This document shows positions 1 through 42,681 of a stretch of 63,639 nt of DNA, piece after piece (the stretch's first letter is position 1; every line of letters begins with the position of its first letter). This DNA comes from Nemertoderma westbladi (lineage: Eukaryota > Animalia > Xenacoelomorpha): positions 1 through 63,639 of the forward strand of contig JAUCBJ010003479.1 of assembly GCA_032718475.1 (NCBI GenBank), in the 5' to 3' direction. The notes beneath the pieces were generated by a model. It was not told the DNA's origin and ran no database searches. It worked only from the letters and a program-made list of their open reading frames with translations. The translations under genes and the position numbers were made by a program.

Positions 1-2129
1 ACCGCAAACTAAGCAGCCCCATTTCCCTGTGCAAGACTCCACACAGTGACCCCTGGACAAACAGCGATAACATCGTCCATCTCTTTCTACATGCTCTTTC
101 CTTTCATGTGGTTCCATCTCTTTATACTTTGGGCACTTAAGTAAAGAGTGATCGGTTGACCTGCACAATATGCAAGTATAACGTATCCTCTTTACCTGGT
201 TTAGTGCCTTTGGTATCTTATTGGGATATTTAATCGACTGTCCATCCTTCGGTTGCGTAATCTGGGTACTATATGAAGATACTTTACCTGACTTAACTAA
301 AAACTGTCGGTCGTTATCTTTATTCCGCTTATAACTGTCACTATGATGTCTCTCTCTATATTCTTTTGCAGCTGTGCTGTTAATTATTCGAGCTTCCTTC
401 TTTAGCCATGATGCCAGCTCCTCTAATTTCGGATAGGAACCGCTTTCCTCCATTACATCGACTTTCCTCAGCCATTTGTCATATATTTTGTAAGGTAATT
501 TACTAGCAATCTCAGTAATATTGCGTTGGCTGTTCAATTCGTGTGGTCTCTGTAATGCAGCAAGGGTCTTTGCCGTTCTGTTCACTTTATCAGAATATGC
601 CTGAATTTCTACTGGTGTTTCCACACTTTTTCCCGCCAACAAATTTCTTATGGAATCGTTAATAATTCTGACTGGGTTTCCAAAACGTTCCTCTAGCTCT
701 TGCCATGCTTCCATATATCCTTCTTCACCTTGCCCTTCTAAATGCTTTATCAGTTCCAATGGTGAGCCATCCAAAAATTGTAGTAAATGTACTAACTTTT
801 CCTGTGGTGCCAAAATCGTATTATGGACCTGCTGAAAGAACCTTTGTTTAAAGTTTAACCATTCTAATGGCTCGCCCCGATACTTTATCGGTATTGGTCT
901 GGGCAAATTCTGTCTTTGTTCATGGCGAATCCAGTAATGAATGTCTGAAGGGTTGCCTACAGGTAGTGCAGGGTCCGCGTTTGTCTCATAGCTTTGAAAC
1001 GGTGATAAGTTATTATTCGTTACCTTATTATTGCCATGATTTCCAGGGGCAAATTTTATTCTACTGTATGTATCTTCTGCTTCAATGTATGCACTCAACT
1101 TACGTATGCACCCTCGGCATAAAGTGGCTGCATCACACGCCCTCTTGGATTCCCCCATTATATCATGACATGTGTCATATTTACCGTCAAATATATTTTT
1201 CACGAAATTACTTATTTCCTGTTGCAACTCAATCAATTTATTTAGTTGTAAATGTGCTAGATCACGCCCAGCTGTCCTATCTATAATTTCAATTGCCCGT
1301 TTGCAATTTGATTCCACCTGTAATATGGTTTGGCTCATATTTTCTATCTCCTCTACGACATGTACTAGATATACATTATTCCTATTATGTTGTGCACTAT
1401 TGTGTTGGTCGCTATTTCCTGGCCTGATGCTCCGTGCAAGAGGGGTGTGGGTGCCCCCTGGAGGCATCAGTCCCTCAGTTGACCAGCTAGCCGATACCGG
1501 TACCTGATGGCCAGGTTGCATTTGATCATACCCAGTGTAGCTTCCTCTATCCTGTTCTGATTGCCGTTTAGGCCTAAACCTTACCTGTTGTGTTTGCTCA
1601 TCCTGTCTGCTAAACTCCCTTCCGGTGACTGGTAACTCCCCGTTTCCAGTTGCTGTTCGTACACCAGCCCTAAAACGTGTTCGCTGTGGATCTGCCGAGC
1701 TGATTAAACCAGCTACCGGTAGGCCTAGCTCATAGTCCCCGTGATGGAGGTTGTCTGGATTTCCCGCCAAGACTGGTCCGGGTTTCTGCCCATGTTGGCG
1801 TTCTGAAACTGGGAACGGTTGTTGTACATGAATATTGCGTCGTCCAGGCAGGTTCCCACCTTGGGGACGTCATCTGTTGGACTCGATCTCGCCGCCGGCG
1901 CTCCTAGGCCTAGAGATGTCATCAACGAATGTAACTGATGTTCGTCGTCGATTAATGTTCGGGGGTTGTGGTTATACGGAACTTGTGGCACCTGAGTGAC
2001 AGTTGATGATCTTTCAGGTGCGATGTGCGAATACGCTGGATTCCATAAACTACCGGCAGGCATTGCTGAAACTGCAGGCCAAGTGGATTCGTTATACCCG
2101 GAACAGGAACCGGCTTTGGATTCATCCAT
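1..2129 (-). CDS. gag: BEL/Pao retrotransposon gag of the left element; runs off the window, with a probable frameshift near the N-terminus
   Basis: I translated the - strand by hand: the frame is open from 1869 to 1. It reads PIKYRGEPLEWLNFKQRFFQQVHNTILAPQEKLVHLLQFLDG...AWQELEERFGNP (DUF1759-type BEL gag core), then knuckles CILCRSTDHSLLKC, CYRCLSRGHCVESC and CLVCG. The MDESKAG ORF (2129-1725) is in another frame that overlaps it, implying an indel between ~1730 and 1870. The ORF track misses this frame because it has no stop in the window. Confidence 0.88.
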
Positions 2130-2508
2130 TACGAATTACTTATTCGATGTTATATGATTGACTCTTAGTTTATTTTATTTATTTATATTATTATGTCACG
2201 TTTATTTGTGTAATCTATATTTACCCGAGCGATATATCTAATGTAATATACTTTGTTTGGTTGCTCTCAATGTTTTACTAATTCACAGGTGCTGTGGTTC
2301 TTAAACAAACACCAGTGCCTGTAAACAAGTTATTGACTGTGTTCTTCTTTACTAATAATTATGCGCTTGTCGCTATGTTACTACCTAGGTAATCGTTCTC
2401 ATACGCTGGTGTAAACAGTATAAACTCACTTTATGAAACTCCGTGTTTTAGTACAGTAGGGTTGTGTTGCGATCCTATTTGGAGATCGCTAGTGATGATG
2501 TCCGTTGC

Positions 2509-3057
2509 AATCACATGCGCTGGGATAATAACAATCCCCAGTTCATGTAATGGCTATTAAATCAAGTTATACAGTCAACATAAATTAATAATATAATCAA
2601 TCAGCTTTCAATCACATGCGCTGGGATAACAAATCGCCAGTTCATGTAATCTTTTAAAATAAAGTTATAAAGAAAACATAAATTAATACTATACCGGTAA
2701 TAGTAATAATCAGCTATTCAATCACATACGCTGGGATATAACAATAACCAGTTCATGTAATCTTAGCCTAATATAAATTTTAAAGAAAACAGAACTGAAT
2801 AATATAATCAACCTTTTAATCACAAGCGCTGGTATAATAACAATAACCAGTTCATGTAATCTTAGCCTAATATAAATTTTAAAGAAAACAGAACTGAATA
2901 ATATAATCAACCTTTTAATCACAAGCGCTGGTATAATAACAATAACCAGTTCATGTAATCTTAGCCTAATATAAATTTTAAAGAAAACAGAACTGAATAA
3001 TATAATTAACCTTTTAATCACAAGCGCTGGTTTAATAACAATAACCAGTTCATGTAA
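2509..3057. repeat. ~99-bp tandem repeat (~6 copies) in the 5' leader of the left BEL element
   Basis: Unit AATCACAAGCGCTGGTATAATAACAATAACCAGTTCATGTAAT... recurs at ~2509, 2610, 2720, 2819, 2918 and 3017. Confidence 0.92.
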
Positions 3058-3544
3058 TTAAACAAATTATGAACGAAACATAAATAATATACCGGTAAAA
3101 ATAATAATAAGTTACGTATGATTAAGAAAGGTTTATAATTCAATCAAGAAGAATAAATAAATTAATAAAATAGAAAATTCAATTTATTAATCGAAAAAGT
3201 TTAAAAATGGCCTCAAATTCATTTACTTAATGTTGGCCCGGTTTACAACATTGTGATTCGCGCTGGCCGGGAGCAATCAAATGACGCGCTACTGGCTACG
3301 AACTGGATTGAGAGGTCCATCAAAGGGAAAAGCATCAGGGGCCCGAACGGGCTAATATACGGAAAACACTAACCGTGATCAATTGAAGGGCTATTCCACT
3401 TATAATGTATCTCAAAGTCAAGCAATATAAACACCCAAATAATAATCAATGTACGTATACTATAGATAAACCTATTAGGTTCCCAACAAATCTAGGTAGC
3501 CGCTAGCAGCGGTAAATGAATTTGCTGAGCCCAAAGCTACGAAT

Positions 3545-3760
3545 GAATAATGAACTTGGAACTCAGGCTTTTATAGTCTTTAGATCTGGGCCCCAAAATA
3601 TATCATAACAATACAAACCAATAGCAGAGCATCATTGAATGTAAATGAACTGTCATTGGTCCAAGTATTTGTGGGTCCAGCCAATGGAGCTTCATAGCCT
3701 CTTATAGCAAAGGCACATATTCTGGGTCGAGCCATGTAAATAGGTAAGCTTCACCCAATA
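3545..3760 (-). promoter_or_regulatory. Pol II promoter of the putative left LTR (CCAAT cluster, TATA box, Inr-like TCATT)
   Basis: The - strand reads GACTATAAAAGCC (TATA at 3575-3569), with TCATT motifs ~15-25 nt downstream and several CCAAT/ATTGG motifs upstream. Confidence 0.5.
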
Positions 3761-4187
3761 GGGTAAATTAACGCCTACATTAACCGCCCATCAGAAGTCA
3801 CTGACTTCTAACTAACAACAATAAACAGCGTTAAGTTATCCCTAGACAAATTAAACCTCAACAATTATTCACTAATTATCTATCTAAATTATGTATCAAC
3901 AACAATCAAATTAATGTAGAATCATTTATATTTATATACTTACAATATGTATGCCTAATGCACAATAAAATCGAAAATTACAGAACATTCATAACATCAT
4001 TATAGTTTACCGATGTAACTGATAGTTCATAGCACATAATTTGAACATAAATCACTATATACAGTATATCTTCTATACTTAAACGCTAACGAATAATTAG
4101 TGCGATATTACTATAATATAACTTGGAATAATATATATAATGTACAATATATGTACGTACAGTACATATCAATGAGACATGGCTCAA

Positions 4188-4481
4188 GCATCGTTCGCCA
4201 CCAGGGCATAAATATTCGGTCGTTCTTAATGAACAGAGGGCTAAAGATGTTGCTGAAGCATCGTTTGCCATAAAGGCAGATATTTCGTTTGTTCTATATG
4301 AACAGAGGGCTAAAGCTTGTATTACTAAAAGCTAAAGCATCGGTTGCTCGAAGAGCAAAATATTCGTTTGTTCTTTGCGAACGGAGGGCTAAATTAAAAA
4401 ACGCAGAATAATTTAGCATCGTTTGTACAAATAAGGCACAAATAATAATCGTTTGTTCTACGTAAGAACAGAGGGCTAAAG
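4188..4481. repeat. Degenerate ~70-80 bp repeats (4 copies) in the putative U3
   Basis: GCATCGTT...ATATTCGTTTGTTCT...GAACAGAGGGCTAAA recurs four times. Confidence 0.8.
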
Positions 4482-4804
4482 GCATCATGTTTATCAATTT
4501 AGATTACCTAAACAAAGGTACCGGTATATAAATAAATTGGGTTAATTAAATTCAAATACACATTTTCATTTTACTTTACATTTTACCAATGTCAAAAGTA
4601 GTAACCAGTAAAGTTATATAAATTTACTAAATATTACAGTATGTTTCCTTAGTCCAAATCCTTTTCTCTACTGTACCTTTATTACGTCAGTTAATTCTCG
4701 CCGCCCACCTTGAATAAATCGGAGAAAAAAAAAAAAAAAAAAACTTTCCATCTGTTGCCGCCCACCTTGAACCAATCCATTTAGGTTGCTTTCCAATTAT
4801 TCGC

Positions 4805-6700
4805 CTAACATTTCGCGCACTTACAGTCTTTGTATTGTCGTAGAGTCTGTGAGATTTCCTCAACATTATCCTTTGTCACCTTTGTAATCATCTCGATCGT
4901 GGTTGTAACCGAGGTGTGGATGGCATAATCAACCAGATCTTCGTAATCGAATTTTCGCGTGTTCAGGATTCCCCTACATTGCCATTCCATTGGGATAGGA
5001 AAAAAACCAATACTTATAGCCGCTACGTCTCTATCTCGAGATTTCAATCGGTTCATGAGAGCCAGATTACATGTTGCGTATTTCTCAAATCTTCTTAGCA
5101 TTTCTTGCTGCTTAGCCATGTCGTCTTGGCAATGAAATAGGGCATGACCTCTACAACCACATCTGGGGCACCGATTCAAGAGCAGTGGACAAACCTGTAA
5201 CGAGTGTTCCTTCTGGCTTCCACAATAATTGCAGCTACTCCTACCAATTCTGAAGTGGCATACCTTGGGTCCCAGATGTTCTCCCCATTTCGATTGTGCT
5301 ATAGGACAAGTTGGCAAAGCACATCGCCGACAGGCTGGGTAATGGTCTTTTTGCATTGGAACGAATTTGTTCCTGGTAGGAAGCTTCGGAATTTGAGCAA
5401 AAGGTCTTTGGAGCCCATTATGATCATGAGTGTTCTTATATACCTCCATCTCTAACTCATTTAGCGACGTAAGGTAGATACTAGCTAGGGTGTATGCGGA
5501 TGATGGTATTGGATCATCTTGGTCAATATCGTATCCTTCCAAATCAATGATAGCTGGATCCAGGTCTTCAGCGAGACTTATACTAACATTCCCTGCGGTA
5601 TGTTGCTGTAGTTGTTTCATTCCATCATCCTCTTTTATCATTGTTCTCAAAATTCCAACCATTGCTTTAGCCAGCTCTCCTTTCCAGTTCCTCAAAGTTG
5701 AGATCATCCTTGTGGGTTGATCAACCACCGCTTCATGACAGAACTTGCAAATTCCGCAAACCATGTCCTGAATTACCTCTGATAATCTGACTCGTTGTTG
5801 GTGTGATAGGTTCCGGTTTCCTTTCTTCTCACCACTAGTGAATATGTTATCCAACCTATCCGTGTTTTCAAACCTTTCCCAGCAACTAACCTTTAGATCA
5901 TACTTCCTAGTAACTTGAATAACGTTGAACAAAATAAAATTGGCGGCATTTTCAGTACGTGATGTTGATGCTGATCTATCCATATTGTCAAAAGCTGCAA
6001 ATATATGTCGATATCATTTATTGTAACATGAAGTTCCATCATTTTCTGGCACCTTTTCCGATTCATGCCAGATCCTTTTGGTGATTGTAATAGCGCAGAA
6101 GCTACATAATCTGCTTCTGCTTCTCCAAATTCAGGTGATTTCAACTCTAAAGCTTCTTCAAGTGCTGCAAGTGCAAGAGCATCGCGTAGGCCACGTTCCT
6201 TTGCCAAGCGAGTAATTTCTTTCTGTTGCCGCTCTGATTTTTGTAATAACAATGTGTCAGCCTGATCTGTCTGAGCAGCTGCTCCTGACTGCTCGAGCTG
6301 TAGCAGAAGTAATTTTCGCTTGACTTTGGCACGATGAACTCGAACTGATGCGCTCGTAGAGGTTCGAGAATGTGCTATAGAGCCAGAGTGAGTTGAAATT
6401 GTTCGATTACGTTTGAGCTCGCCAACTTGCAATTGTTCATGAGATGATACATACTGTGGAACATCTGAAGGCACAACTACAATAGGTATGGCGTTACTCC
6501 GACATGTCTGGGTCTGAGTCACGGTCTGCTCATTGCTATTAATATATTCGCGAATGTCATTGAGTTTAGATTCAAGGTCTGACAATACAGTTACTGATTG
6601 GGCAGCTAGCTCACGTGACACATCAGAAAACCCAAATCTTTCGAAATCGAAAGTTGATTTTTCATAGTGACTACACAAAGATTTGTATACATTAATACAA
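4805..6700 (-). pseudogene. Accessory ORF of the left BEL element: N-terminal coiled coil plus C-terminal CCHC zinc-knuckle module (disrupted)
   Basis: ORFs 5893-6735 and 4805-5983 can be joined through one frameshift (~6070) and one in-frame TGA (6014-6016). The C-terminal CNYCGSQKEHSLQVCPLLLNRCPRCGCRGHALFHC has the same Cys/His spacing as ORF 26381-26935. Confidence 0.7.
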
Positions 6701-9545
6701 GTAGTAGTTCTAATTGTGAATGTCATTAGTTCCAATTTAATAGCACACAGACGTAATCACACGTCAGTAGTTCTAAACCAAGCGTCAGTAATTCTAAACC
6801 GGATACGTCAATAGTTATAATCAAAGCGTCAGTAGTTCTAATTGTGAATGTCATTAGTTCCAATTTAATAGCACACAGACTTAATCACACGTCAGTAGTT
6901 CTAAACCAAGCGTCAGTAATTCTAAACCGGATACGTCAATAGTTATAATCAAAGCGTCAGTAGTTCTAATTGTGAATGTCATTAGTTCCAATATAACTGC
7001 ACACAGACTTAATCACACGTCATTAGCTCTAAACCAAGCGTCAGTAGTTCTAATTGTGAATGTCATTAGTTCCAATTTAATAGCACACAGACGTAATCAC
7101 ACGTCAGTAGTTCTAAACCAAGCGTCAGTTGTTCTAAACCGGATACGACAATAGTTATAATCAAAAAGTCAGTAGTTCTAATTGTGAATGTCATTAGTTC
7201 CAATTTAATAGCACACAGACGTAATCACACGCCAGTAGTTCTAAACCAAGCGTCAGTAGTTCTAATTGTGAAAGTCATTAGTTCCAATTTAATACCACAC
7301 AGACGTAATCACACGTCAGTAGTTCTAAACCAAGCGTCAGTAGTTCTAAACCGGATACGACAATAGTTATAATCAAAAAGTCAGTAGTTCTAATTGTGAA
7401 TGTCATTAGTTCCAATTTAATAGCACACAGACGTAATCACACGCCAGTAGTTCTAATTGTGAATGTCATTAGTTCCAATTTAATAGCACACAGACGTAAT
7501 CACACGCCAGTAGTTCTAATTGTGAATGTCATTAGTTCCAATTTAATAGCACACAGACGTAATCACACGCCAGTAGTTCTAAACCAAGCGTCAGTAGTTC
7601 TAATTGTGAAAGTCATTAGTTCCAATTTAATAGCACACGCACTTAATCACACGTCAGTAGTTCTAATTGTGAATGTCATTAGTTCCAATTTAATAGCACA
7701 CAGACTTAATCACACGTCAGTAGTTCTAAACCAAGCGTCAGTAGTTCTAAACCGGATACGACAATAGTTATAAACCAAGCGTCAGTAGTTCTAATTGTGA
7801 ATGTCATTAGTTCCAATTTAATAGCACACAGACGTAATCACACGCCAGTAGTTCTAATTGTGAATGTCATTAGTTCCAATTTAATAGCACACAGACGTAA
7901 TCACACGCCAGTAGTTCTAAACCAAGCGTCAGTAGTTCTAATTGTGAAAGTCATTAGTTCCAATTTAATAGCACACAGACGTAATCACACGTCAGTAGTT
8001 CTAAACCAAGCGTCAGTAGTTCTAATTGTGAAAGTCATTAGTTCCAATTTAATAGCACACAGACGTAATCACACGTCAGTAGTTCTAAACCAAGCGTCAG
8101 TTGTTCTAAACCGGATACGTCAATAGTTATAATCAAAGCGTCAGTAGTTCTAATTGTGAATGTCATTAGTTCCAATTTAATAGCACACAGACGTAATCAC
8201 ACGTCAGTAGTTCTAAACCAAGCGTCAGTAATTCTAAACCGGATACGTCAATAGTTATAATCAAAGCGTCAGTAGTTCTAATTGTGAATGTTATTAGTTC
8301 CAATTTAACTGCACACAGACGTAATCACACGTCAGTAGTTCTAAACCAAGCGTCAGTAGTTCTAATTGTGAATGTCATTAGTTCCAATTTAATAGCACAC
8401 AGACGTAATCACACGTCAGTAGTTCTAAACCAAGCGTCAGTTGTTCTAAACCGGATACGACAATAGTTATAATCAAAAAGTCAGTAGTTCTAATTGTGAA
8501 TGTCATTAGTTCCAATTTAATACCACACAGACGTAATCACACGTCAGTAGTTCTAAACCAAGCGTCAGTAGTTCTAATTGTGAATGTCATTATTTCCAAT
8601 TTAATAGCACACAGACGTAATCACACGTCAGTAGTTCTAAACCAAGCGTCAGTTGTTCTAAACCGGATACGACAATAGTTATAATCAAAAAGTCAGTAGT
8701 TCTAATTGTGAATGTCATTAGTTCCAATTTAATAGCACACAGACGTAATCACACGTCAATAGTTCTGAACCAAGCGTCAGTAGTTCTAAACCGGATACGT
8801 CAATAGTTATAATCAAAGCGTCAGTAGTTCTAATTGTGAATGTTATTAGTTCCAATTTAACTGCACACAGACGTAATCACACGTCAGTAGTTCTAAACCA
8901 AGCGTCAGTAGTTCTAATTGTGAATGTCATTAGTTCCAATTTAATAGCACACAGACGTAATCACACGTCAGTAGTTCTAAACCAAGCGTCAGTTGTTCTA
9001 AACCGGATACGACAATAGTTATAATCAAAAAGTCAGTAGTTCTAATTGTGAATGTCATTAGTTCCAATTTAATACCACACAGACGTAATCACACGTCAGT
9101 AGTTCTAAACCAAGCGTCAGTAGTTCTAATTGTGAATGTCATTAGTTCCAATTTAATAGCACACAGACGTAATCACACGTCAGTAGTTCTAAACCAAGCG
9201 TCAGTTGTTCTAAACCGGATACGACAATAGTTATAATCAAAAAGTCAGTAGTTCTAATTGTGAATGTCATTAGTTCCAATTTAATAGCACATAGACGTAA
9301 TCACACGTCAGTAGTTCTAAACCAAGCGTCAGTTGTTCTAAACCGGATACGTCAATAGTTATAATCAAAGCGTCAGTAGTTCTAATTGTGAATGTCATTA
9401 GTTCCAATTTAATAGCACACAGACGTAATCACACGTCAGTAGTTCTAAACCAAGCGTCAGTTGTTCTAAACCGGATACGTCAATAATTATAATCAAAGCG
9501 TCAGTAGTTCTAATTGTGAATGTCATTAGTTCCAATTTAATAGCA
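6701..9545. repeat. 2.8 kb higher-order satellite built from ~21-bp subunits
   Basis: Blocks of 63 bp (GTAGTTCTAATTGTGAATGTCATTAGTTCCAATTTAATAGCACACAGACGTAATCACACGTCA), 21 bp (GTAGTTCTAAACCAAGCGTCA) and 44 bp combine into 63, 84, 128, 212 and 552 bp periods. Confidence 0.97.
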
Positions 9546-9745
9546 AACTGGACCGTCAGTTATTATATTTAATTACAATTATCATTGTTAATTCGCCGAG
9601 ACGAGACATTATTTCGCCGAGATGAGATTTAAGTATCAATATCAGTCAATATCTATAGTTGCAATATCTTTGCGAATGTTTATTCCCTTAGCATTCTCAT
9701 TGCCACTTCTATATGGTGTACTGTAGCAACCAACAGAACATAACA

Positions 9746-11015
9746 TGTAAAAGCTTCTGTGGGATATAACTGGCCCTTTTGCTTCGCAATCCAGTTTCCC
9801 CCCCCCCCCCAGGCGCTGGAATACTCTAAAAGGTTCTCTAACTGTATATATATTCCCCTCGCCCGCAAGGTACCGTTATAGGTGTTTTAACGGACATAAA
9901 AGTCCTTCTGCTATATACGTGTTTTGGCGGACATGGTAAGGCAAAAAACCTGCAATGTACCAAATACCTTTACACAGCTTAGCCTTGATGATTCAGATTG
10001 CGACATCTAGCAGCTGGTTGCTGGCATGGAAACAGCCATTGGACGCAGGGTTCTTTGTTTGGCTTGAGCCAATCAGAGCGATTTTTTCTGTCGACGTGTA
10101 GATATTTGGTCGATCATGCTGGGAGTGTTCAGTCTTACTGTTTTTTTAGTGATACTTTGTGTTATTGCTATCTGGGCCAGGAACACCGGCTAGAGTCAAC
10201 TCGGTTTCATACTTTAGAAGAAACATTTGTAGGCTTAAATTATAGAGCGTATAACCGTTATCATAACTTATCACATCACTTATCTAATCATATCAACTGA
10301 TCGCAATTCAGTCGTACATTATCGGTTCAATATACATTATTATACTGCTATTTACTATTGTTTGGTTGAATATTATTTGGAGAACATTTATAAAGAACCC
10401 AAATTTCCCAATTTTCTTGATACACTACAGGTTAGAGAGACGGGTTATATATAGCGATTGCGACTTATATTATTGTGTATGTAGTGAATTTAATGCTATT
10501 TGATAAGCACTACATTGGTCCGTTGCTGTTCTCTTTATATATGATAAAAATCATTGACGGTCGGCAAATTAGTGGGCAGTATTGTGTGTTACCGGTAGTG
10601 TGCATGATTGTGACTGATAACGAAGCATTTCCTAAAGAATGCGCCTTATACGTGAATCATAAGCCTTACTGTTGCGTGTAGTATAAGTCATATCTCTGTT
10701 TACCTAGATAGAGCGCCACGTCGTAAAGGAACTGTTAATATTTCCCGAAAGTGAATAATATTAGTCAGAAATTATTTATTAACGATCAATCGAATAATAC
10801 AATACAGTAAGCTTCACTGCAATAATAATCTGAGCCCTCAGAATCCAGTCTCCCGGGTATATCCAGCGGGTGAATGGACGCGCACTAGGCTGGCTTCTGC
10901 TAATGTTGTTTTTATTGGTATTAAATATTTGTCATCTTCTAAAGTCTATTTATAAACCAAAAGACATATAAATTTTGGCAGGTTAAACTGCTAAAGGTCT
11001 TCAAAAGCGCTTACA
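9746..11015 (+). repeat. LTR1 (1270 bp)
   Basis: Runs TGTAAAAGCTT...AAGCGCTTACA. It is nearly identical to 27389-28652: about 10 substitutions seen by eye plus a C13 vs C7 run. Confidence 0.95.
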
Positions 11016-11081
11016 ATAACGGTTATTGACTTTATTGCAGTAAGCAATAAAGTTGAAAGTACCGGTCGACCGGTAAACCTG

Positions 11082-11910
11082 AACCGGTACTTCTGTAGGT
11101 CCGTAGGCCCAACTGCCAGAACCGGTACTGCTGTAGGTCCGTAGGTCCAACTGTCAGAACCGGTACTTCTGTAGGCCTGTAGGCCCAACTGTCCTAACCG
11201 GTACTTCCAGTATAAGTACATTAGTATTATTCGATTTTGATTATTGTATACTGGTAGGTCTTAGTATTTAATCAGGGACTGCAGCCCTGGTTTTTTATTG
11301 AGATTTTACTCATTTCTGTCGGTTTTATTTACATGTAAGTTAATATTGAGCTGAAGACGTGTAAGTCTGCTCAGATTGTTCAGATAATTGTAGGCCGGAC
11401 CGTTGTTAGATTGTTGTTGAGTTTGGAGAGATTACGGCGTGTGTAGAGTTTGTCCGATAGAGTGCCAGTTAGTAAGTTAGGGCAGCCATAGCTGTAAGGT
11501 AAATCCCCTCTTAAAGAATAAGTCGTACTACCGTGTTAGAACGCATACTAACTAACAATTTTGGAATCTGCACATACTGTAGTTTATTTAGGCTTGACAG
11601 TATTCTGCCAGCGCTTTGGCCTGTGTTTGTTTGTGTGGTCTGTTCAGGTACCGTAATAGTTATTACTCAGATATTTTGTAGGCTGGATTGTTGTCTAGCT
11701 ATTATTAGGTCTGAAGAGATTGCTGCGTGTGTAGAGTTTGTCCGATAGAGTGCCAGTTAGTAAGTTGGGGCAGCCATAGCTGTAAGGTCAATCCCCTCTT
11801 AAAGAATAAGTCGTACTACCGTGTTAGAACGCATACTAACTAACCGTTTTGGAATCTGCACATACAGTAGTTTATTTAGGCTTGGTGGTAGTCTGCCAGC
11901 GTTTGGTTTG
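11082..11910 (+). repeat. Leader repeats: ~39-bp ACCGGTAC repeats (11082-11207) and a duplication with ~288-bp period (~11426 and ~11714)
   Basis: ACCGGTACTTCTGTAGGTCCGTAGGCCCAACTG... occurs 3-4 times. GTGTGTAGAGTTTGTCCGATAGAGTGCCAGTTAGTAAG... occurs twice. Both recur in the second unit (~28720-29545). Confidence 0.9.
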
Positions 11911-13248
11911 TATTTTGTTTGAGTATTCTGTACGGGTAGCGTAATATTTATTATTCAGAGTTTATGCGATTATTCGCAACATTCATGTCCCCAAGTTTAT
12001 TCCTACAGTAATTGTGTTTGTTACACATACCGTTATAGTTAAATTAACCCCGGTACTACACGGGCTGCTTGGCGTAGGTAAAGACTGGTGATTTCGTGCA
12101 CTGGTCACTCCAGCAGATGCCGTGGTTCTTTTAACTGTTCAAGTATATTTAACTACTGATTATTTGTTGTACCAGTACTTGTACCTAATTTAGGGTTTAG
12201 TGTACAGTGCTTTCCGAAAGTAATTAGTGTGTAGGCAGTATATTTGTGTTGTAAAGTGGTTAATAGGCACGTTGGATCTGGTAGTCCGCGGTAATTAACT
12301 TCCAGGTAGGAACACTCCGTGATACATAACGTAGTACCTATAGCGATACGGCTATAGGTCGTCAGGCGGTGGTATTTTCCTATCTGGACAGTGCAATATA
12401 TTTACTACTACTTATTATTTTCAAATACCGTAGTACCCTGTCCGTTGTAATAACCAGAATTCTAACCCTTTGTTAGGCTGGTTTGTAGACTTCCTGTAAA
12501 ATTACCCTAAAAATTTCGTACGTAATATTTTGTTGTGTTTAATTAGAGAATTAATCTCACCCGTATCGTAAGTAATTTGTAGTATTAAGTAACTTAGGAA
12601 AATTAGAATAATCTGTTTTAGTGTCAAATAAGTAGCACTCCACTGAGAGCGCACAGCTTCTGTGTAGTGACCCCAGAAATAATAACATTTATTTCAAATA
12701 TTGACAAAATCCATTTTAAACGGGTATATAAATATTATAAATCAACTCAAACGATTTATAAATAGTAGGCCTGCCATACAACAACTAGGTCTCAATATCA
12801 GTTGGACTACTGCTTAAATAACGGTAACAAAGTAAGTTAAAGTAACCAAGTAACCCTAAAATATTCAGAAATTCAATTATTCTAAAATCATTGATATACC
12901 GGTATTTACCATAGGCTTATTATATTTATTTCTATAAATTTGAGCTAAAATCATACCGGTATTCTGTAATTAATTCTAGTTCATAATTATACTTATATAT
13001 ACTATAAGTGTAGGCTGTATACCGGTATTCACGATAGGCCTATTATATATTTATATATATTTGTGCTAAATTTATATACCGGTACTCTGTGACAAAACTA
13101 GTTTACAATACTTATATATATTATAAGTGTATACCGGTATTCTAATATACTGCAATAAATTACTGGTACTAGGCCAACGGTCATACTGAATTACTAGACT
13201 TGCTTTAACTGTAACTATAGCAGTAAGCATTCAACTGTATAGCTAAAC

Positions 13249-16200
13249 ATGTCTGACACTCAGCAAAACCTGTCAGACAGTCTAATCGATACAACCATCT
13301 GTGACACAGATAGGAGTGTGGAGCGATTAAGAAAGGAGTTCAGCTCACCTCCTACTGAAAGAAAAGTCATCCCTCCAGTAGTGGTATCGGACCCTAAGCT
13401 AATCCAACACCGTAGGTCTATCATCGGCACTCGGGCCCAAGTCAAACGGAACCAGGAAGCAGCTGTCCCACAGCAGCAACAGCCTAGTCAAGAAACTTGT
13501 TCCCAGCGATCCGATAGCTCCAGTAGTTCGGATACTGTCGAGCTGACCCCTGAACGCGGATTACGGATGGCGGCTAAAGCCTACTCGAACCCCCTTCTCA
13601 CCCTTCCTGCCGCAGTGCTAACTACTATATTGATTGCGGTGGAGGAACATCAAGCCGATTGGGCGAGAAATAAGCGAGCGACCCAAGATAATTATGCGGG
13701 ATATGCCAGGGAAGAATTGATGTCTATTGTCGAGTCACAATGGAACTTTCCCGGACCCGGACTCCCGTTAGATTTGTCCGAAGCTACTTGGGAAGACATA
13801 CACAGGATGGGAGTGACTAAAGATACAATGGATCCAGCTGTTTGGAAGAGGTCGGCAGCAGGATATGTGCAGGGATTCTTCGGCTCCTTAGAGCGATTAG
13901 AAGAACAACTGTTTCGACAACCCCAAGGACCTCAAGAGCAGGAAGAACTGCTATACCAAGTACGCGAAAGAACCCTACGCATTCGACTAATCCTATCAGC
14001 CTTTGAGGAAACTTCCAAAAGAAGACAGGACACGTCGCTGCAAGTTGCTGTCAAAACTTGGTTCCAGCGGGTAGGTCGCAAAGTACAAGAAACGGACCAG
14101 TGGAAATCCCAGCTGTCTGAGAGGCTAACCTATGAAGAACCAACCGATGCCACCCTTCCTCAAGTGGAAGGCGAAGAGACCGCAGAGAGACCACGAACGA
14201 GAGACGCCATAGATATTTATCTGTCCGACTATCAGCGATTCCTAGGAGACGAAGAGTTGAGGAGACGGCTGTCTGGACTCTCCCCTAATAGTGAAGGAAC
14301 CCAACGTGTGTTAGACTCAATCGATGCTGAAATGTTAGCTGCTAACCAAGCAGAATTTGATGAAAAACTCCGCCTCGCTAGAGTCCAAGAAGAACAAGTA
14401 AAGAAAAGACGGATAGAGGAACAAAAGGCGGCAGCTATGGCAGAAGCAGAAGCAGAAAGAAAGGCAGCGGCGGCAGAAGCAGAAGCAGAAAGAAAAGCAG
14501 CAAAGGCAGCGACGGCAGAAGCAGAAGCAGAAAGAAAGGCAGCGGCGGCAGAAGCAGAAGCAGAAAGAAAAGCAGCAAAGGCAGCGGCGGCAGAAGCAGA
14601 AGCAGAAAGAAAGGCAGCGGCGGCAGAAGCAGAAGCAGAAAGAAAAGCAGCAAAGGCAGTGGCAGAAGCAGAACGGAGAGCCTCTGAGCAGACTACCCAA
14701 CTGGAGTTGGAAAATCTGCAAGAGACGCAAGACAACATAAATAAACAGTTAACTGCTAGTCAAATGCAGATGATGAGACGATCTACTCCCAAACGCCAGG
14801 GATACACATCATCGGAGGAAAGCGAAACCACCGATCCTGAAGGCGGAGGAAATAGATCTCGTCTAAGCAGGCGTAGAAAAACATCTCGCCGTCACAAATT
14901 GCCTGATTTGCCCCCAGCTGTTAGAAGACAGCTAGCTAGCACAGACTTAGGTAGTACGGAACCCGCATACCAAACTATTCAGGTCAAAAGACTCCCTACA
15001 ATAGTTGATGAGCCTGAAATAATTAGGCCTGTCATTCCCAAAGTCACTTCTGTGTTAGAGACCCCTGTACTTCCAGAGCTCAACTCTAAATTCCCTTTAC
15101 ATAGTACTACACTGCCTGTACCCGGTAGAACAGTCCAAGAGAATATCCCTGTCCTGATAGCAGAGAGAGAAATCAAAGATTTGTCTCCCGTCGTCCCACA
15201 TCAGCCCGCTACAATGTTGGCGACTCCCGCTTCGGCGGTCGAGTGGGTAGAAGAGGGACGGCGGGGGATGAACCTCCTGCTCGGACAGATGCAGGAGACT
15301 GTCCACCAACTTAAGGGAACAGTAAGGGAAGGTAGGGCAGAATTGCAAGAAGTGCAGCAAAGTATCGCACTGGAACGCGACAAATTAGTCAATATACAAA
15401 AGGGCATACCAATACCCCCTGTAACATTGTGTCAACCTGTTAGGTCTGAAGTATTACATGCGCAAGGTGTGGAGCCTACACGCATCTATACTGCTAGTGA
15501 AGTAGAAACTCCTATAGCAAACCCTATTAAGGGTGATTATAGACCTGTTATTAATGATATTCCCTATAGACCTGATAATGATCCGAGAAATTTATATACC
15601 GATAATTCGATATTAAATAACACGATGGCCCAAGAAAGCTTTACGCGTCAGATGGCTAGAACAGAAGCCCGCCAAGCGGTCAAAGTGGGAGAGATCGTTA
15701 AATTCAATGGAGATGAGATGAAATGGTTACCTTTCAATGAATATTACAAAGATAGCATACAAAACTCTGTACTATCTCAGGAGAGAAACTTAGGTTCCTC
15801 ATCAAGTGCTTGGAAGGACCTCCCAGGTTAATGGCGTTAAAGTTTATTGGACATCCAGAAGGATTAAGACAAGTATGGGATACATTAAACATCAGGTATG
15901 GTAACAAGGATAACATAGCTAAGTATTTGTATGCAAAATTAGTAGCCCCCCGACACTTCCTTAGTAGCGGGATTATAGAGTTTTCCGATGAGATTCAAGA
16001 GATCTGTAGACAATTGGACTGGTTAGGTAAGTCTCATGAATATCAGAGTTCCATGGTTATTGGAGCAGTAGTCTCTACTTTACCAAAGGGTGGAGTATGT
16101 ACACGCTGGGACAAGAAAGTGTTGTACCTGAATGAACAACAACGACGAAGTCCTACCATGGCTGATCTCATGTCTTTCTTAGATGGTGAAGTAAAACTAC

Positions 16201-19200
16201 AGCTCATCAAGCAGTCCAGAGAGAAAACATCGGAAAATAAGGTAAGTGAGAAACCCGCTTCTAGGAGAAGAGTAACACCGGTGTGTTACACTGACGACGG
16301 CGAACGCCAAGCTTCTCAAGAAGAGGACAGCGGGAAAGACACTGAGAGATCTTACTACGTTGAAAAAACCTCAAAAGATGTAAGTAAATACAAGGCTCGA
16401 AACAACGATAGGAGAGAACAGGTTGCCAAGACCCCTCCTCAGTCTCCTAACAGAATACACCGAAGAAAACCCGAAGAAAAAACGAGAGTGCATCAAGTTA
16501 CCCAAGGTAAAGTGAGTAACATAAAACCTAACTGTGCGCTGTGCGACGGGACCCACCGTTTGAGTGCGTGTGCTGAATTTCTAAAGAAATCCCTTGTAGA
16601 CAGACGTGCAGTCGTATGGGATAAGCGGTTATGCTATAATTGCCTCAGACCAGGACACCAACGGCGAACCTGTTACTCCGACATAAAGTGTGCAAAGTGT
16701 GGCGCGAAACATCACATCTTGTTACACAGTGAGTTCGAACGAGACAAAATGAGTCAGGTAAGTGAGCCCGAACTACATGTCCAATTCAGTGATGTAAACG
16801 ACACTGATCAAGAATCTGAGATGGAAGGATTCTATACTGACGAATTCTCCGACGCCAACGAATCCTGTTATCTAATCAATACCGCAGTGTATCGAGCACT
16901 TACTTATGAAAAGGACACCAACAATGAGTTTTCCCCAACTACTTTTGCCAAACAACCATCTTGGAAAGCTCCAACTTCCAACGTAGGAATCAGAGAATTT
17001 CCTGTAGTGCAGGTAAGAGTTCACAGTCTTAACAAAAGTTACATAGTGAACGCCCTCCTTGACTCCGGCAGCACAGGAACATTCATCGATCAAGAACTAG
17101 CCGAAGATATCTTTGCTGGACAACCCAAGTTCCGGACTAAATTGAATATGTCAGGAATTATGCAGGTTTGGAAATCTACCGTAACGGCAGATTACTATGT
17201 AGGTGTGTTGTCCACCCCCCAGGATAAGTTAGGAGCACAAGGTATAAGGTCGGTAAAAATGGTGGCTATAAAGAACTTCGCTACTACTCAAGCAGACCTT
17301 TATAATTGGGACGAGGATGAGAGCATCCAACATCTTAAGATACCTCGATTCCAGACAGATTATCCTGGAGTGCAAATACTCATCGGCCAAAACGCGCATG
17401 AAGCGCTCGAAACATTGGAGAAACGGCCTGCTCAACCACAGCCACTGCAAACCTATGCGGTAAGAACTAGAGTAGGTTGGTACTTTACTGGCCCTTCCCG
17501 CAGGACTCTCGAAGAGAGAATGCCCCAAGAACAAATATACCAAGTAAACGATTGGGAAGTGGAGAGCAGTGAGGTGGACGAACTAACTGAGGGAACACCA
17601 TACTCCTCAGATAATGACGACATCTACCAACTCTTCGATGAAGAGAACACAATCGACCTACTTACAGAAAACCAAACTTGGAAAAATCAGGTGAACCTAT
17701 GTCAACTGATTCGCCCATCAGAACCCATCGCTTACAATGACGAACTCAACGATGAGATAGAGCGCTACAACGCTAGAACTCGGGACGAACTAGCCGTACG
17801 ATTCTTTACTCAGGAACTGGTAGAGCCCAATTCATATGATAAGGCTCTATCGATAGAAGAAGAAAGAGCCAAGCAAATCCAGGAAACAACTACACGTTTT
17901 TTAAAAGACCAAGGTAGATATGAAATCGGCCTACCATTTCGAAAACGAGAACCTAGATTTATAAATAACAGACCTTTGGCAGAGAAAAGAATCGCTCAAT
18001 TACATCGACGACTTACAGCTAATGCTTCAGCGAAAGAAATGTACCAAACTCAGCTGAAGAAATTTATAACAAAGGGATACGCGGAGCGAGTACCCGAAGG
18101 AACACCAGTGACTGAGAGAACGTATTACTTAACGCATCATTACGTTCCCAAACCCGGTAAACCACACGAAGTACGAGTCGTATTCTATGGCTCCGCCCTA
18201 TATATGGGCCAATCCCTCAATTCCGAGTTGTTACCAGGACCCAACTTACTCCAATCTTTGTTGGGAATACTTTTAAGATTAAGACAATATTCCATCGCGT
18301 TCGCCTCAGATATAGAAGGAATGTTCTTACAAGTCAAGGCGCTGGATAGAGATAGAGACAGCCTGAGATTTCTGTGGTGGCCTGAAGGAGACCTCAATCA
18401 GAAACCGGTAGAATACTGGATGACCATCCAGGCCTTTGGAATCATATCAAGCCCTTCCAACGCCTGCTCCGTGGTGCGAACCACTGCGAATGACAACCGA
18501 GACTCCTTCTCAAAAGAGGTGATAGACAACATCAAACGGAATATATACATGGACGACAATTTAAGGTCCCTTCCATCAGTAGAAGAAGCCATAGCTGTCG
18601 CGAAAGGAACGGTAGAGTGTTTGAAAAGAGGTGGATTTAGACTAACGAAATTCACCAGCAACTCCCGTGAGTTTCTAGAAGCGATACCGGTAGAAGACCG
18701 CGGAGCGAAAGACCTAGACTTAATAAAGGACGATCTTCCTGAAACCAAGACGCTAGGCTTGAAGTGGGACACTGAAAGAGACATCCTGTTTTTTCAGTTA
18801 AAACAGCGAGATAATCCAGTTCGGACCAAACGGATTTGTTTAAGTATTCTGAGCACTTATTTCGACCCATTGGGATTCATTAGCCCAGTTATATTGATTG
18901 CTCGCTGCTCGGAGTTTAGTACAACAAATGTGGCTTGAAAACCACTCATGGGACGATCCGCTTAAGGGAGAATTGTTAAGGAAATGGATGAAATGGGAAG
19001 ATTCTCTACCTGCCATCGAGAACTTTATAATTTCCCGTGCATATTTTGGCCATGTTCTCCCTACGTACTCTTATCAACTCCATGTGTTTGGAGACGCCAG
19101 CGACATGGGAATAGGTATAGTAGCATATCTGCGAGTCGAAACTCCGGATGGGATCAAGGTCGCCTTGGTTACCTCTAAGGCATTGATTAACAACAAGTTA

Positions 19201-21436
19201 AAGGTTCCTCGAGCGGAGTTAAAGGCAGCTTTATACGCTACAGCCATCGGCCGGAACGTAACGGAACAAATCGACTATCCACTGGAGAAAACGGTTTATT
19301 GGACCGACGCTTTACTCGTGTTGGAGTATCTAACCAATGAAGTCTGTCAGTTCAGCGTTTTTGTTACTAACTGAGTAGCTATTATTCTTAGTCGCACAAA
19401 GATAGATCAATGGAGACATTGCCCTGGTACGATTAATCCAGCCGATATCACCTCCAGGGGAGCAACTCCACAGGAACTGATAGATACTCCAGATTGGTTG
19501 GGTGGACCCGACTTCCTGAGCAAGGAAGAGGATGAATGGCCTCCTCACCTTACTACGGCAGAGATTAGACAAGCCAATGGAGCTGAGACAGTCAAACCTA
19601 AAACCCGGGCGAGTAAATCGAAGTTATTTAAACCGACTATCGATCTATCTGTATTACATACTTCCGGGAATGATGCTTCGGATCCACAATCCCTCAACAC
19701 AAATAAGTCTGTTGTGGAAATTAGAGATAAAGATTGGAAATCTGGAATACCAGACGTCTCGCAAGGAATCTCACCCATGCTGCAGAGAGCAATGCATCAT
19801 TACAGTTCCTGGAATCGGCTCTGTAAAGCCGTCACATATTTAAGACGATGTTTTCATCATCACTACTCCAGGACGAAGACCACTAGTGATACCGCTCCAT
19901 TGACATCTGCACAAGTTCATGTTATTAAAAATTTACCCAAATATAAGACATCTGACCGTTTTCTAAAGGAGAAAATTAGTCACCAGGAGCATGAAGAAAC
20001 CAATAAGCAGGTACTGAGACTCCTGCAATGCTATGAGGATCCCGAAAAGTATTTCCTGTTGTTAAGAAATCCGCAGATGCGCTTAAGGGATCGATTCTCG
20101 AGCACAATGATAGATGGGTTAATACGTGTTGGAGGAAGACTCACCAATGCGCCCTTATCCTTTGACACCAAATTCCCCATACTTATTAGAAATCTTGAAG
20201 TACAAATCAAGATGATTGTAGATGTTCACAGTAAACTTTATCATGCTGGCAGAGAACGATTCTTAGCGAAATTCGAACTCGCTATTATTTTAATAAACCC
20301 CGTAGAGCTCTGAACCAAGTTCTTAGGAACTGCATACCCTGTAGGAAAGCATTCAGTAGGCCTTTAACACAGCGAGAGGCAGAATTACCTAGGGAACGAG
20401 TAAGCTTCTATGAACCACCTTTTACTAATACTGGTGTAGATTTATTTGGCCCTATTGAAGTATATCGTGCGAGGACTATAGTCAAGAGATGGTGTGTCAT
20501 CTTCGTGTGCATGACTTGTAGAGCCATCCATCTCGATATGGTGAACGATCTATCTACCAACAGCTTCGTCTTAAGTTTACGACGACAGATCGCTCGCTTC
20601 GGGACGAGTAATACCATGAGATCGGATAAGGGAACGAACTTCATTGGTGCCAACAACGAAATACAGGCTTACGTGAAGGACTGGAACCAAAGACAGGGGA
20701 CGACCAGCTAAGGATAACAGCATCTAGCTGGACCTTCAACGCCGCCGACGCCCCTTGGTGGGGAGGAAGTTGGGAGAGATTAATTCGAAGTGTCAAAACC
20801 GCATTTCACTTTATAGTGCCATGCCGCGCGTATCTCACCGACGAACTTTTGCGGACGTTAATGGAGGAAATCGCTGCCTATCTCAACGAGAGACCGCTTA
20901 TGCCAGTCTCATCGAGTCCCGATTCCCTGGAAGCGCTAACACCCGCGCACTTCCTACTGAAGAAACCTGTAGCCATGCTCCCACGATCGGAGATTGCCGA
21001 CGGAGACGAATACTGCCGTCGAACTTGGCAGCTTATGCAGTTGCTATCCCGTCGTTTCGCTGACCATTTCGAGAAACATTATCTGCCCACGCTACAACTT
21101 CGAACTAAGTGGTTTGCGCAGCAAGAAAACGTCAGCGCCGGAGATATGGTGCTTATTGTAGATCCAGACCTCCCACGTAAACGGTGGCAGACAGGTCGTA
21201 TCATCGAGACCCACATCTCGGAGGATGGTTTAGTGCGCTCAGTAGAACTTGTCGTCATGCGGCGTAATTTCAAGAAGCCAGGCATAATCTTTGAGACGCA
21301 ACAACTCAATTGCCCAGTTGGTCGTTTATGTTTACTGGAAAGAGACAGAGAACTCTTTGGAAACTATGGAAGGCAAGACACTCTTCCCACGACCACCTCC
21401 CTAATTCCTCAAACATCTAGGGACTCCCTAACGTGA
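13249..21436 (+). pseudogene. gag-pol: BEL/Pao gag-pol polyprotein, disrupted by ~4 frameshifts and 1 stop
   Basis: Gag core KFNGDEMKWLPF; three knuckles CALCDGTHRLSAC, CYNCLRPGHQRRTC and CAKCGAKHH. Protease ALLDSGS (17061); RT SDIEGMFLQV and YMDD (18546); RNase H HVFGDAS, RAELKAA, WTDA and NPAD. Integrase HHCC plus GVDLFGP, SDKGTNF and GGSWERL. Breaks at ~15783, ~18900, TGA 19372-19374, ~20270 and ~20695. Confidence 0.96.
14437..14675 (+). repeat. Coding minisatellite in gag (AEAEAERKAAA / AEAEAERKAAKAAA), predicted long helix or coiled coil
   Basis: Repeated GCAGAAGCAGAAGCAGAAAGAAAGGCAGCGGCG units in frame. Confidence 0.93.
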
Positions 21437-22986: not shown

Positions 22987-23057
22987 AGAAGTAGGCAGCG
23001 ACGCCCGCTCGCCTAAATACAAACTTATTTGGATATTAATAAACTCAGATAGCAGAT

Positions 23058-26000
23058 ATGACGGAGTTGATAGAAGATGATCTTGGTATTAGGGAGCGAT
23101 ATACTCTACCTTTACAAGCATTTGTAGATAGCTTAATACGCGGTGAAGCCGATCCAACCATTACGGAGGACGATGGTCATTATATCGAACCGCCGATGTC
23201 CCAAGAGCAACTTGCGCGTGAATTGGACTATCGAAAATTCACCGCTCGCTATACGAATCGTAATGGTACGTATATGGACTTCTTAACTACCGGCCATCCT
23301 ATCGATTTGCATGATACGGACGATGTAGATACAGAGAGGGAAATGGTTCTATTTAAATATCATACCCAGCGGAGTCGTAACGATAAACCGAGAATAGATC
23401 ACGAAAATTCTATTCGTAATCGACTGGAAAGAGAAAACGTTGAAGAACCGGATAAACGCATCGACTTCAACGAATACCTAGAATTTTTGAGAGAAACCTA
23501 TCTCAACATCGCCAGTCAGCAGAACTTAGAGACTCGATATCCTCAAGGTATACATCACGACCCTGTGGTAGAACTCAAACGGCTCTATTTCACTATGATG
23601 TATCTTACCGCCGATCGTCCACTACCTGTTATCCCGGATAGTTTTGAACAAATGGAAGAATACTGCAAAACTGGAGAACGTTCACCCGCGTTTCCTCTAC
23701 AGGACGTACGTCTTTGGTATTATTGTGACGAATGCCCTAGACCCAACCAACAAACGGAAAGACACAAACATCCGCGGAGACGTTGCGCTAAACATAGTTT
23801 TACGCATTACACTTACGGGAGTTTCGAGCGAAACCTGTTCGACATACCACCCATGATCGCTCGTCTTAAACGATCACTGAATAAATCCATGATCAGAGTT
23901 CCGGAATACTCGGTCAGGCCTCCTCATTCCCTAGTGAGACCTCAAACTCTTGATCCTAACAGTATCACTGATCCTCCCGAACTATATTCCCTGTTCAAAG
24001 ACTTAGTGTTACCCGAACAATTAATCGGTGGTGCTCCGGTAGTAGGTTCGTTAGACATCCGCCCATCCTACTTAGCCGGATTGGGACGCGGGCAGCTAAT
24101 ATCGCCCTTTGATCCTTACAATCGTCCAGGATTAAACCCGATGCAACCCGCCACGGAAGTCGAGGAGAGCGTTATAAGAAACGCTTTAGACGCCATTCGA
24201 CAGAAAATCGGAAAGGGAACACAAGATTGTTTAGAGAAACGTAAATTACAACAACAAGTCCAATCGGTGAAGGAGTTAGCCTTGCCACAGTTCGATAGAG
24301 AAATCCAAAACCTCGAGGAAGACATCGAGCTTGGACGCACGTATTCTCTACAAGAATTTTTAGATGAACGCTTACAGAGACAAGCGGAAGAAAATCTAAT
24401 CGAAGAGAAACACACGAAACTGGAAGAAAGAGAAGAAGCCGCTTTAGCCCAACCTGAAGCTCAAATCCTCATGACAGACCTCTACTCTAAAACCGTTCGT
24501 CATCCCTCGATGATTCCACATTTCGGAGACAAGCTCTTCGCGACGATACAGCCTCAACCGGTTGATATCAGTACAGGATCGCAAAATCTTATCGCTGACG
24601 CCCCTATGTTACAGCGTCCGCCGATCGAGGCCGCTCGTGTTGACGGTATACTCGTTGAACCTCCGGACAATCGAGCGGATCTTGTCCGTCGTATGGTACA
24701 TGATGTCAACATACGCGCTAGACCTTTACAGAACTCGTTTTATGGGATTAAAGACCACCCTTATTACGTTAATCTGACTCAATATTATATGGTAAAACCA
24801 GAAGACCCGACGCATAATTTAAAGTTTCTACCACTAATAAATCCTCTAGACATTGTCGAACTCGAACAATTGCAGAAACATCTGGATCAGTTAGTAAAGG
24901 TAAACTCATTTAGAAAACCATATAACATTTCTCGAATCGAGAAAGATATAGAACCTCCTTATAATCTCGATGGATTTATTAAAACTCGATTAGTCCATTG
25001 GAATCTAGATGTATTATTTGAAGAAGAGAAAATACAAAGATATGGAAATGTGGAGACGTATACCACTCGGCATATGAAGTATAGTGATCTCCCTGACGCT
25101 AACCAATGCGCCACCTTGTGGCATCCAGTAGGGATGACCCTAGAGAACGCCACCAAGGAGTGGAATGAAACTCTTAATGTTATTGAGATGTATGGAGTTG
25201 TCACCTACGATAATGAAGGTAGCGTTCCGGTCGGAGAACTAGGAACTACGCGCATGATTCACATACGCGGATTAGCTGGTTCTACCCACGTGTTTACTCG
25301 AGCGTGTTCCGACGTGATTGATTATTCCTTTGAAACTCTCACCGAAACACAAAAGAATCTCCGACATGGACAATTCGAACTCGCGCAGCGTTACGTCATT
25401 GACACCGAACGCAAACCGGCCATGGGCATCGATGGATCGATGTTACCCCAGCCCGTACTCGAAATGTTGTTCAACGAAAGAATCCTTAAAATCGGCTCAG
25501 CTGTTTATGGAGATCTCCAAAACGACTTTCGGAATATGGAGGACATTCCATACCCTTTCGTTGATACTCAGCTGATTGCTCCCTGGGCAGAAGGTCGAGG
25601 TTTCTTCCGCACCATGTATGCTAATACGCCTAGCAACATTACCAAGGTGCAACGAACTTCCATCGGACATCTCGCCTTTCAGGAATACGGATGGAATTTC
25701 AAAGTCGGAAATCCCATTAACTATCAACAAGTATACGGAGACCATTATTCTCGATTATACTTTGATGGACCATTGACCGCACCTGGCGCCGTGTATAGCT
25801 TCATGAGTGTTCCACTCCGTCCCTCCTTAGCTATATACACGATCTTTGAAAACACCGCACTTGCCGGTTGGCTAGCCGATGTGTGCAGTCGTACTATACG
25901 CGCCCATCCATTAATACTTGGGACCAAACTCGCTAAGCTAGATGAACATAATAAATTCATCCGTTTCGAATGTTTCCGGCGATTTTTAACCCCGTTCCAC

Positions 26001-27377: not shown

Positions 27378-27388
27378 TCTGGGAGCGG
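27378..27388 (+). other. Polypurine-tract position (TCTGGGAGCGG) abutting LTR2
   Basis: G-rich tract immediately before the TG of LTR2. Confidence 0.75.
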
Positions 27389-34940: not shown

Positions 34941-34942
34941 AC

Positions 34943-42192: not shown

Positions 42193-42681
42193 ATAGATTA
42201 TAGTATGAACATCAGATCGAGAATTAACTTCCCTACAGAGTCTGCGTCTGGCGGCGGCCGTCCGTCTTAACAGTGACCATACCATGGACCAATCGCAGGT
42301 GACATCAACCTTGACGCTTGACACGTCCACACCTTCACATGTGCAATGTGGGCAGTGCTGAAAGGCTATGCAACCAATACAGAATCAAACTATGTTTGTA
42401 CAGTATGTTGGATTGTGTGACCGTGTCTATTTCGGTATATTCTATCCCAAGGTTGCCAGGCAGTTGGTTTCACCCGGGTCTGGGCAGCATGCATCCGCCT
42501 CAGTGAGTTATCATAATGCCGTCGTAATAATCGTTAAGATTGTTATCGTTGTCGTAAAGATTGAAACTTGTCGAAGCTAAAATATAAAACGTGAAATAAA
42601 ATAAAAGAAAAGGGACGTGTTGAGGAAGTGATTTATAGATTCGAAATAGTATGTACATCGGATATTATTTATTTCAATAAA

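Follow-up and report, generated by a model that had tools for sequence, protein, structure and literature searches.

The window, the whole 63,639-nucleotide stretch of Nemertoderma westbladi contig JAUCBJ010003479.1 that was analyzed, contains a Bel/Pao LTR retrotransposon unit of 18,907 bp, here called element A, whose features all lie on the forward strand. Self-comparison delimits LTR1 at 9746 to 11015 (1,270 bp, TGTA..TACA), preceded by one copy of a 5-bp target-site duplication, TAACA, at 9741 to 9745. LTR2 (27389 to 28652), which follows a polypurine tract at 27381 to 27388, is identical to LTR1 at 1,254 of 1,264 aligned bases and is common to element A and a second, shortened unit comprising a leader and the start of gag (28664 to 32215). 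A deletion joins the end of this second unit to a partial LTR3 (32216 to 33164) that begins at the equivalent of position 10067; we observe that gag and LTR are joined at a short AGC(C)AA microhomology. Since LTR3 ends at 33164 and is directly followed by the same TAACA (33165 to 33169) that precedes LTR1, the LTR end is fixed and the post-LTR sequence begins at 11016, in agreement with the initial annotation. The leader of element A (11016 to 13240, 2.2 kb) has several palindromes and hairpins at its start, along with repeated ACCGGTA motifs, and contains two 290-bp repeats (11380 to 11959). Many variant copies of element A are found in sequencing runs, with 40 of 254 variant rows listed.

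The coding part consists of an N-terminal gag-like frame without a Pfam match (13243 to 15831) and a broken gag-pol region (15756 to 21436), which is split over five reading frames and encodes DUF1759, CCHC knuckles, a reverse transcriptase (RT) with YMDD, a Pao Peptidase_A17/RNase H region, an integrase zinc finger, and DUF5641. Pfam places the domains in the order DUF1759, Peptidase_A17 (E 1.6e-27), Integrase_H2C2, and DUF5641 (E 1.6e-20). Among the 120 matches listed, the RT shows 38 to 47% identity to Pao-type proteins, nearly all of which carry PF05380, and the named proteins among these matches come from marine invertebrates and fish. With Pao-type Gag and Pol domains in the order PR-RT-RH-IN, TG..CA LTRs, a target duplication, and a polypurine tract, element A is classified by protein phylogeny as a Bel/Pao element, despite its large size and the absence of an 18-nt tRNA primer-binding site (PBS). 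The LTRs, domain order, Pao-specific Pfam domains, and polypurine tract are shared with Belpaoviridae/Semotivirus, which the ICTV describes as having an 18-nt PBS for tRNA-Arg or tRNA-Gly and a genome of 4.2 to 10 kb (PMC8742986). Element A departs from that description in its PBS, in its length, and in a long accessory frame unlike env in appearance, with which it reaches about twice the ICTV size limit. We read this as indicating that the ICTV tRNA-PBS description does not cover the branch to which element A belongs. A Pfam search for a chromodomain in its pol found none, and its Pol is Pao-type, in contrast to the Ty3/gypsy chromovirus Pol of Tf1/sushi elements.

The accessory frame (23043 to 26531, 1,162 aa) is overlapped by a Cys/His knuckle frame (26375 to 26935) and may contain a 3'-5' exonuclease domain, for which there is a lead only. 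An Atlas score of 0.85 points toward this function. The sole homolog among 1.8 billion representatives, P0121 (E 1e-05), combines the accessory part and the Cys/His knuckle part in one protein and shows a weak match to PF01612, a DEDD-type exonuclease family (E 0.2). Pfam and PDB searches with the accessory frame gave no match, no homolog occurred among 1,868 candidates, searches from P0121 found no further ones, and the predicted folds were unusable (pLDDT 32 and 28). The putative exonuclease is thus an unproven lead.

Directly after LTR1, at offset 0, lies the predicted PBS of element A (11016 to 11026, ATAACGGTTAT), which starts with AT and lacks TGG; a second copy follows LTR2 (28653 to 28663). 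Its reverse complement forms the predicted, intron-free self-primer segment at 10251 to 10261, recurring at 27888 to 27898 in LTR2 and at 32400 to 32410 in LTR3, with no other forward-strand site, and the last base of the segment pairs with the first post-LTR base. The perfect 11-nt pairing between the post-LTR bases and the element's own LTR is therefore present in all three LTRs, as the initial annotation had proposed. Consistent with its further claim that a tRNA-type PBS is lacking, no TGG occurs among the 8 nt that follow the LTR; a search of the whole window for tRNA genes found none. A match of at least 11 nt at offset 0 arose in 3 of 5,000 dinucleotide shuffles of the LTR (13 of 5,000 at offsets 0 to 5), so that the match is not due to chance, and 5 of 16,189 internal 11-mers of element A have a complement in the LTR. 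The rule applied to Tf1/sushi-type self-priming, as given in the available portion of PMC6317226, asks for a stretch that begins 0 to 5 bp past the LTR and complements it over 10 bp or more; element A has 11 nt at offset 0.

The 11-bp duplex has a predicted energy of -11.6 kcal/mol, or -17.1 kcal/mol when a predicted imperfect extension helix with G-U pairs (10242 to 10249, toward 11027 to 11035) is included. The 11-mer is indeed quasi-palindromic and can fold locally (11014 to 11028), as had been cautioned, but this hairpin reaches only -0.4 kcal/mol. Just 3' of the PBS, a 9-bp hairpin is predicted at 11030 to 11052 (-8.5 kcal/mol, pair probability 1.0 in four of four folds); in the folds it prevails over a 10-nt match between 11032 to 11041 and 10816 to 10825. 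In equilibrium folds the probability of the 11-bp duplex depends on the RNA start, being near 0 for starts at 10129 or 10200 and 0.9 to 1.0 at most pairs only for starts at 10240 or 10251. At 754 nt, the enclosed loop exceeds all others in a set of 35 (45 to 360 nt), and a single poly(A)-type hexamer, ATTAAA at 10920, lies downstream of the primer segment. An Rfam scan over 9700 to 13300 returned only two weak matches, far below gathering scores. Contig cover over the window drops steeply past approximately 10265.

A second, distinct family, family B, appears to lie in tandem on the minus strand of positions 1 to 6800, with a putative LTR (approximately 4170 to 3231), a leader, and a gag that runs past the window start. 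Its LTR limits are inferred, there being no second LTR copy, and the gag downstream of the site was read by eye as Bel/Pao-like. The predicted self-primer segment of family B (3512 to 3524, minus strand, 13 nt) lies 51 nt past the point, 3575, at which TATAAAAG starts, and its exact complement forms the post-LTR site (3214 to 3226, minus strand), 4 nt after the CAACA end. This complement arose in 1 of 5,000 shuffles and is not due to chance; none of 2,466 internal 13-mers had one. A Cys/His knuckle frame of family B (4805 to 6013, minus strand) resembles that of element A (35% over 48 aa, E 3e-07 in a single comparison). Element A and family B both carry an uninterrupted self-complement, and a self-comparison of the window found no DNA similarity between the two.

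To these we add 79 relative loci recovered from metagenome contigs by RT alignment (from the best 80 of 515 confirmed, with 27 of 64 parts scanned) and 16 from genome contigs, the 95 loci together forming 68 RT clusters; a search of viral contigs yielded none among 69 candidates. In 16 loci the LTR end is set by a second LTR copy, and these, with element A, make up 17 fixed elements. Of the other loci, 15 were left out as same-family duplicates, 40 were scanned blind, and 24 stayed outside the analysis. Under a strict rule, which admits Watson-Crick pairs alone and demands strict splice sites, a self-complement of at least 10 nt is present in 13 of the 17 fixed elements but not in L061, L071, L080, and L093; a looser rule (one G-U pair and a looser acceptor) raises the count to 16. 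In cross-family controls, 15 of 304 pairs reach at least 10 nt under the strict rule, whose table also included family B, and 12 of these 15 fall among four families with one common core. Under the looser rule, 83 of 1,404 control pairs have at least 10 nt and 40 of 1,404 have at least 11 nt. The exception without a self-complement, L093, is also the only one of 38 elements with TGG, a tRNA-type site, after the LTR; no TGG occurs within 8 nt of the LTR in element A and 36 of the 37 others. The sixteen loci L080 to L095 are Bel/Pao loci within prokaryote genome assemblies, L093 sitting in a 1.4-Mb Wolbachia record, and most of the sixteen are probably contigs of the host animal binned into metagenome-assembled genomes.

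The blind scan considered 1,002 candidate ends in its 40 loci and accepted a site in 20 of them (13 split, 7 uninterrupted). These sites were picked by score and therefore show breadth, not significance; for L083 the second-ranked candidate was used, the first falling within the LTR pair. Many of the 20 loci without an accepted site probably lack one because their contig does not include the LTR.

The sites share a common form. The most frequent complement length is 11 nt (19 of 38 elements), equal to that of Tf1, and the duplex always ends 0 to 6 nt from the LTR end. The paired site begins with GT or AT in 36 of 36 elements while comprising 31 different 10-mers; for this count L080 and L093 were left out, L081 and L084 were anchored one base inside the helix, and offsets were set by hand. 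In 23 of 35 elements the primer is followed by C. Element A fits in both this C and its AT start, and L049 fits too, its LTR ending in TA and having been placed by eye. One LTR, that of L069, lacks a CA end. The initial annotation had proposed covariation across related families as a check, and the complement does track the post-LTR sequence of each family. Over the 25 nt that precede the donor, L081 and L084 differ at just two positions; of their three differences within the 30 nt that follow the LTR, two lie opposite these positions, which amounts to two compensatory changes. By eye, a second helix upstream of the primer recurs in the LTRs of L019, L020, L022, L058, L081, L083, and L084, with a bulge of roughly two bases (often AA) setting it apart.

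In most relatives the complement is split. Their LTRs contain a predicted splice donor and acceptor with a T-rich stretch in between, and the last bases of exon 1, joined to the first of exon 2, complement the post-LTR bases. For 12 of the 17 fixed elements the complement is present only across such a GT..AG interval inside the LTR, and it is uninterrupted in three (element A, L020, and L082); L080 has the intron with a one-mismatch junction in both of its LTRs. Across 38 elements the intervals measure 66 to 1,022 nt, with GTAAGT-like donors. The predicted LTR intron also accounts for the weak result of a duplex-energy test without splicing, in which 4 of 12 relatives scored at 14 or fewer of 200 shuffles. 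The initial annotation had drawn a parallel to Tf1, in which the RNA's first 11 bases pair with the PBS, the RNase H cut falling between bases 11 and 12, according to the available part of PMC7175516. Of this parallel, pairing and covariation stand, but the primer of most relatives is split and would lie inside the transcript instead of being its first 11 bases; as a segment spanning two exons, it is unlikely to occupy the 5' terminus of the RNA.

Split and uninterrupted forms occur as sisters in the RT tree, L019 with L020 (support 99) and L033 with L032 (support 96), the latter two sharing the same 9 exon-2 bases. Element A falls on a long branch (1.57) within a group of 45 (support 100). 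The uninterrupted forms lie dispersed over the tree, requiring 10 changes for 11 rows, a value equally low in 324 of 500 shuffles. The tree is a quick, midpoint-rooted version without the named references Sinbad, Suzu, Dan, Sparrow, and Surcouf, and L080 was scored in it as contiguous, though it bears an intron. Repeated intron loss is the simplest reading of this scatter, the direction of change being inferred. It appears probable that a Bel/Pao branch exchanged tRNA priming for a primer built by the host spliceosome, and that repeated, precise loss of the intron gave rise to ready-made primers such as those of element A and family B.

Element A itself yields no split primer. The best of 106 donor-acceptor pairs reached -9.5 kcal/mol, within the controls (-15.4 to -5.0 kcal/mol), the uninterrupted site reaching -13.8 kcal/mol in the same junction test. 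Donor 10257 with acceptor 10430 gives 10 nt of pairing, but the donor is non-consensus and the value lies within the controls; donor 10807 with acceptor 10981 was likewise rejected, no junction exceeding the controls. The latter pair, a GTAAGC donor and a CAG acceptor close to the LTR end and separated by approximately 174 nt, may mark another intron, whose junction pairs poorly with the PBS. Among the listed contigs aligned to the window, none showed a GT..AG intron with a matching joint.

The exact self-complement in element A and dozens of relatives suggests that this branch primes with its own RNA. For element A we favor, with some reserve, a route in which the pairing of post-LTR and LTR bases supplies the minus-strand primer in place of a host tRNA and the element's RNase H cuts in cis. 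The transcript would begin upstream of 10251, and its 5' LTR copy would fold onto the PBS. RNase H, a region that Pfam detects in pol and whose activity is predicted, would then cut just 3' of the duplex (10261/10262), by analogy to Tf1, and RT would extend the freed end through U5 before a jump to R's 3' copy. Intron-bearing relatives would depend on the host spliceosome, which would take the intron out of the cap-proximal LTR copy and thereby build the primer, and the unspliced 3' LTR copy would transmit the intron. A cis cut would take the spliced junction out of the template, so the intron of the progeny would come from the unspliced 3' LTR copy; occasional splicing of that copy would give rise to intronless elements such as element A and family B. 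The cis cut is taken over from Tf1, and sequence alone would not separate it from a primer supplied in trans. Self-priming by either route, be it a cis cut or another source of the primer, we regard as very likely.

Such a primer in trans could be a separate short LTR transcript or the 3' LTR copy of the genomic RNA, with the same pairing, trimmed by a 3'-5' exonuclease that would be the host's or, in element A and family B, the accessory protein. In 24 of 35 LTRs a poly(A)-type hexamer is situated 3' of the primer end, and often near it, so short LTR transcripts could carry the segment, and the Atlas score and P0121 are consistent with an exonuclease in the accessory frame. However, this exonuclease is unproven, Pfam and PDB giving no match, and the gene is present in no relative (no tblastn match in the 95 loci), all nine complete relatives being 5.5 to 7.7 kb long. 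Priming would accordingly need no encoded exonuclease, and trimming by one, which the initial annotation had offered as an option, fails as a general mechanism. In addition, upkeep of the intron would, under trimming, need packaged RNA that is unspliced at the cap-proximal intron, while Tf1 provides a tested precedent for a cut in cis. We therefore consider a trimmed primer rather unlikely, though deserving of serious attention.

Two further explanations abandon self-priming in element A. The duplex might be structural or regulatory, serving packaging, dimer formation, or translation control, with a tRNA fragment or another RNA as the primer. The Bel/Pao family is tRNA-primed according to the ICTV (PMC8742986), and half-tRNA priming occurs in some Ty1/copia lineages, as far as the accessible text of PMC6317226 goes. 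Set against this are the 31 different sites in 36 elements, each matching its own LTR, the duplex end, which always lies where a primer must end, and the lack of a duplex in the sole TGG element. Several relatives do carry a GTTCGAA core that resembles a tRNA T-loop, yet overall we judge this reading improbable. Even less credible is that the match in element A is incidental, a protein-binding palindrome (TAACNGTTA) occurring twice and the actual priming signal having decayed or lying elsewhere. The 11-mer is AT-rich as well as quasi-palindromic, its core ACCGTTA occurs again at 9872 and 12029, the loop of element A is the longest, and the duplex is unpredicted for upstream start sites. But the shuffles make such a coincidence rare, element A fits the clade in length, offset, first two bases, and following C, and no spliced alternative in it beats the controls; we hold an incidental match to be very improbable.

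Self-priming by an element's own RNA, the reading we prefer, has been described for Tf1/sushi, Tcn1, and TAR elements, going by the available parts of PMC6317226, PMC10085805, PMC7175516, PMC3601003, and PMC6934838. Tf1 and Tf2 of Schizosaccharomyces pombe, like element A, lack a tRNA site and pair an 11-nt LTR-derived segment with the post-LTR bases, as described in the accessible portions of PMC7175516 and PMC10085805. Helices also flank their pairing, giving a three-helix "pretzel" around the PBS in the Tf1/sushi group, to which the predicted extension helix and the 10-nt match of element A may correspond. They are Ty3/gypsy chromoviruses, whereas element A belongs to a different superfamily and resembles them in priming without being a Tf1/sushi member. 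The same sequence rule predicts self-priming for plant Tcn1 (Ty3/gypsy) and TAR/Houba/Osr-1 (Ty1/copia), which are again other superfamilies, and a split primer is unmentioned in the part of PMC6317226 that was available. For Bel/Pao, our literature search, with Repbase, GyDB, subscription papers, and supplements outside its scope, found no report of self-priming or LTR introns. The available text of PMC554778, PMC3118150, and PMC6238403 gave no passage for the terms PBS, tRNA, or priming, and that of PMC8220671 contained nothing on Bel/Pao priming.

Bel/Pao elements are officially described as tRNA-primed, with replication that is poorly understood (PMC8742986). Self-priming across a broad branch would, if true, mean that a mechanism tested in fission-yeast Tf1 alone arose independently. 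Assembly of the primer by splicing would couple the onset of reverse transcription to the RNA processing of the host and would explain the survival of an intron in an element copied through RNA. Such elements would be independent of the tRNA supply and possibly of silencing by tRNA fragments. The model sharply predicts where primer and strong-stop DNA end, and the self-complement rule provides a simple means of annotating the many Bel/Pao elements for which tools report no PBS.

Elsewhere in the window, non-LTR retrotransposon reverse transcriptase fragments were read by eye on the minus strand at 33962 to 34948 and 43297 to 44511. A 21-bp tandem array of approximately 140 copies spans 52195 to 55400, and other tandem arrays lie at 6692 to 9548, 36683 to 37553, 41098 to 42193, and 45796 to 46790.
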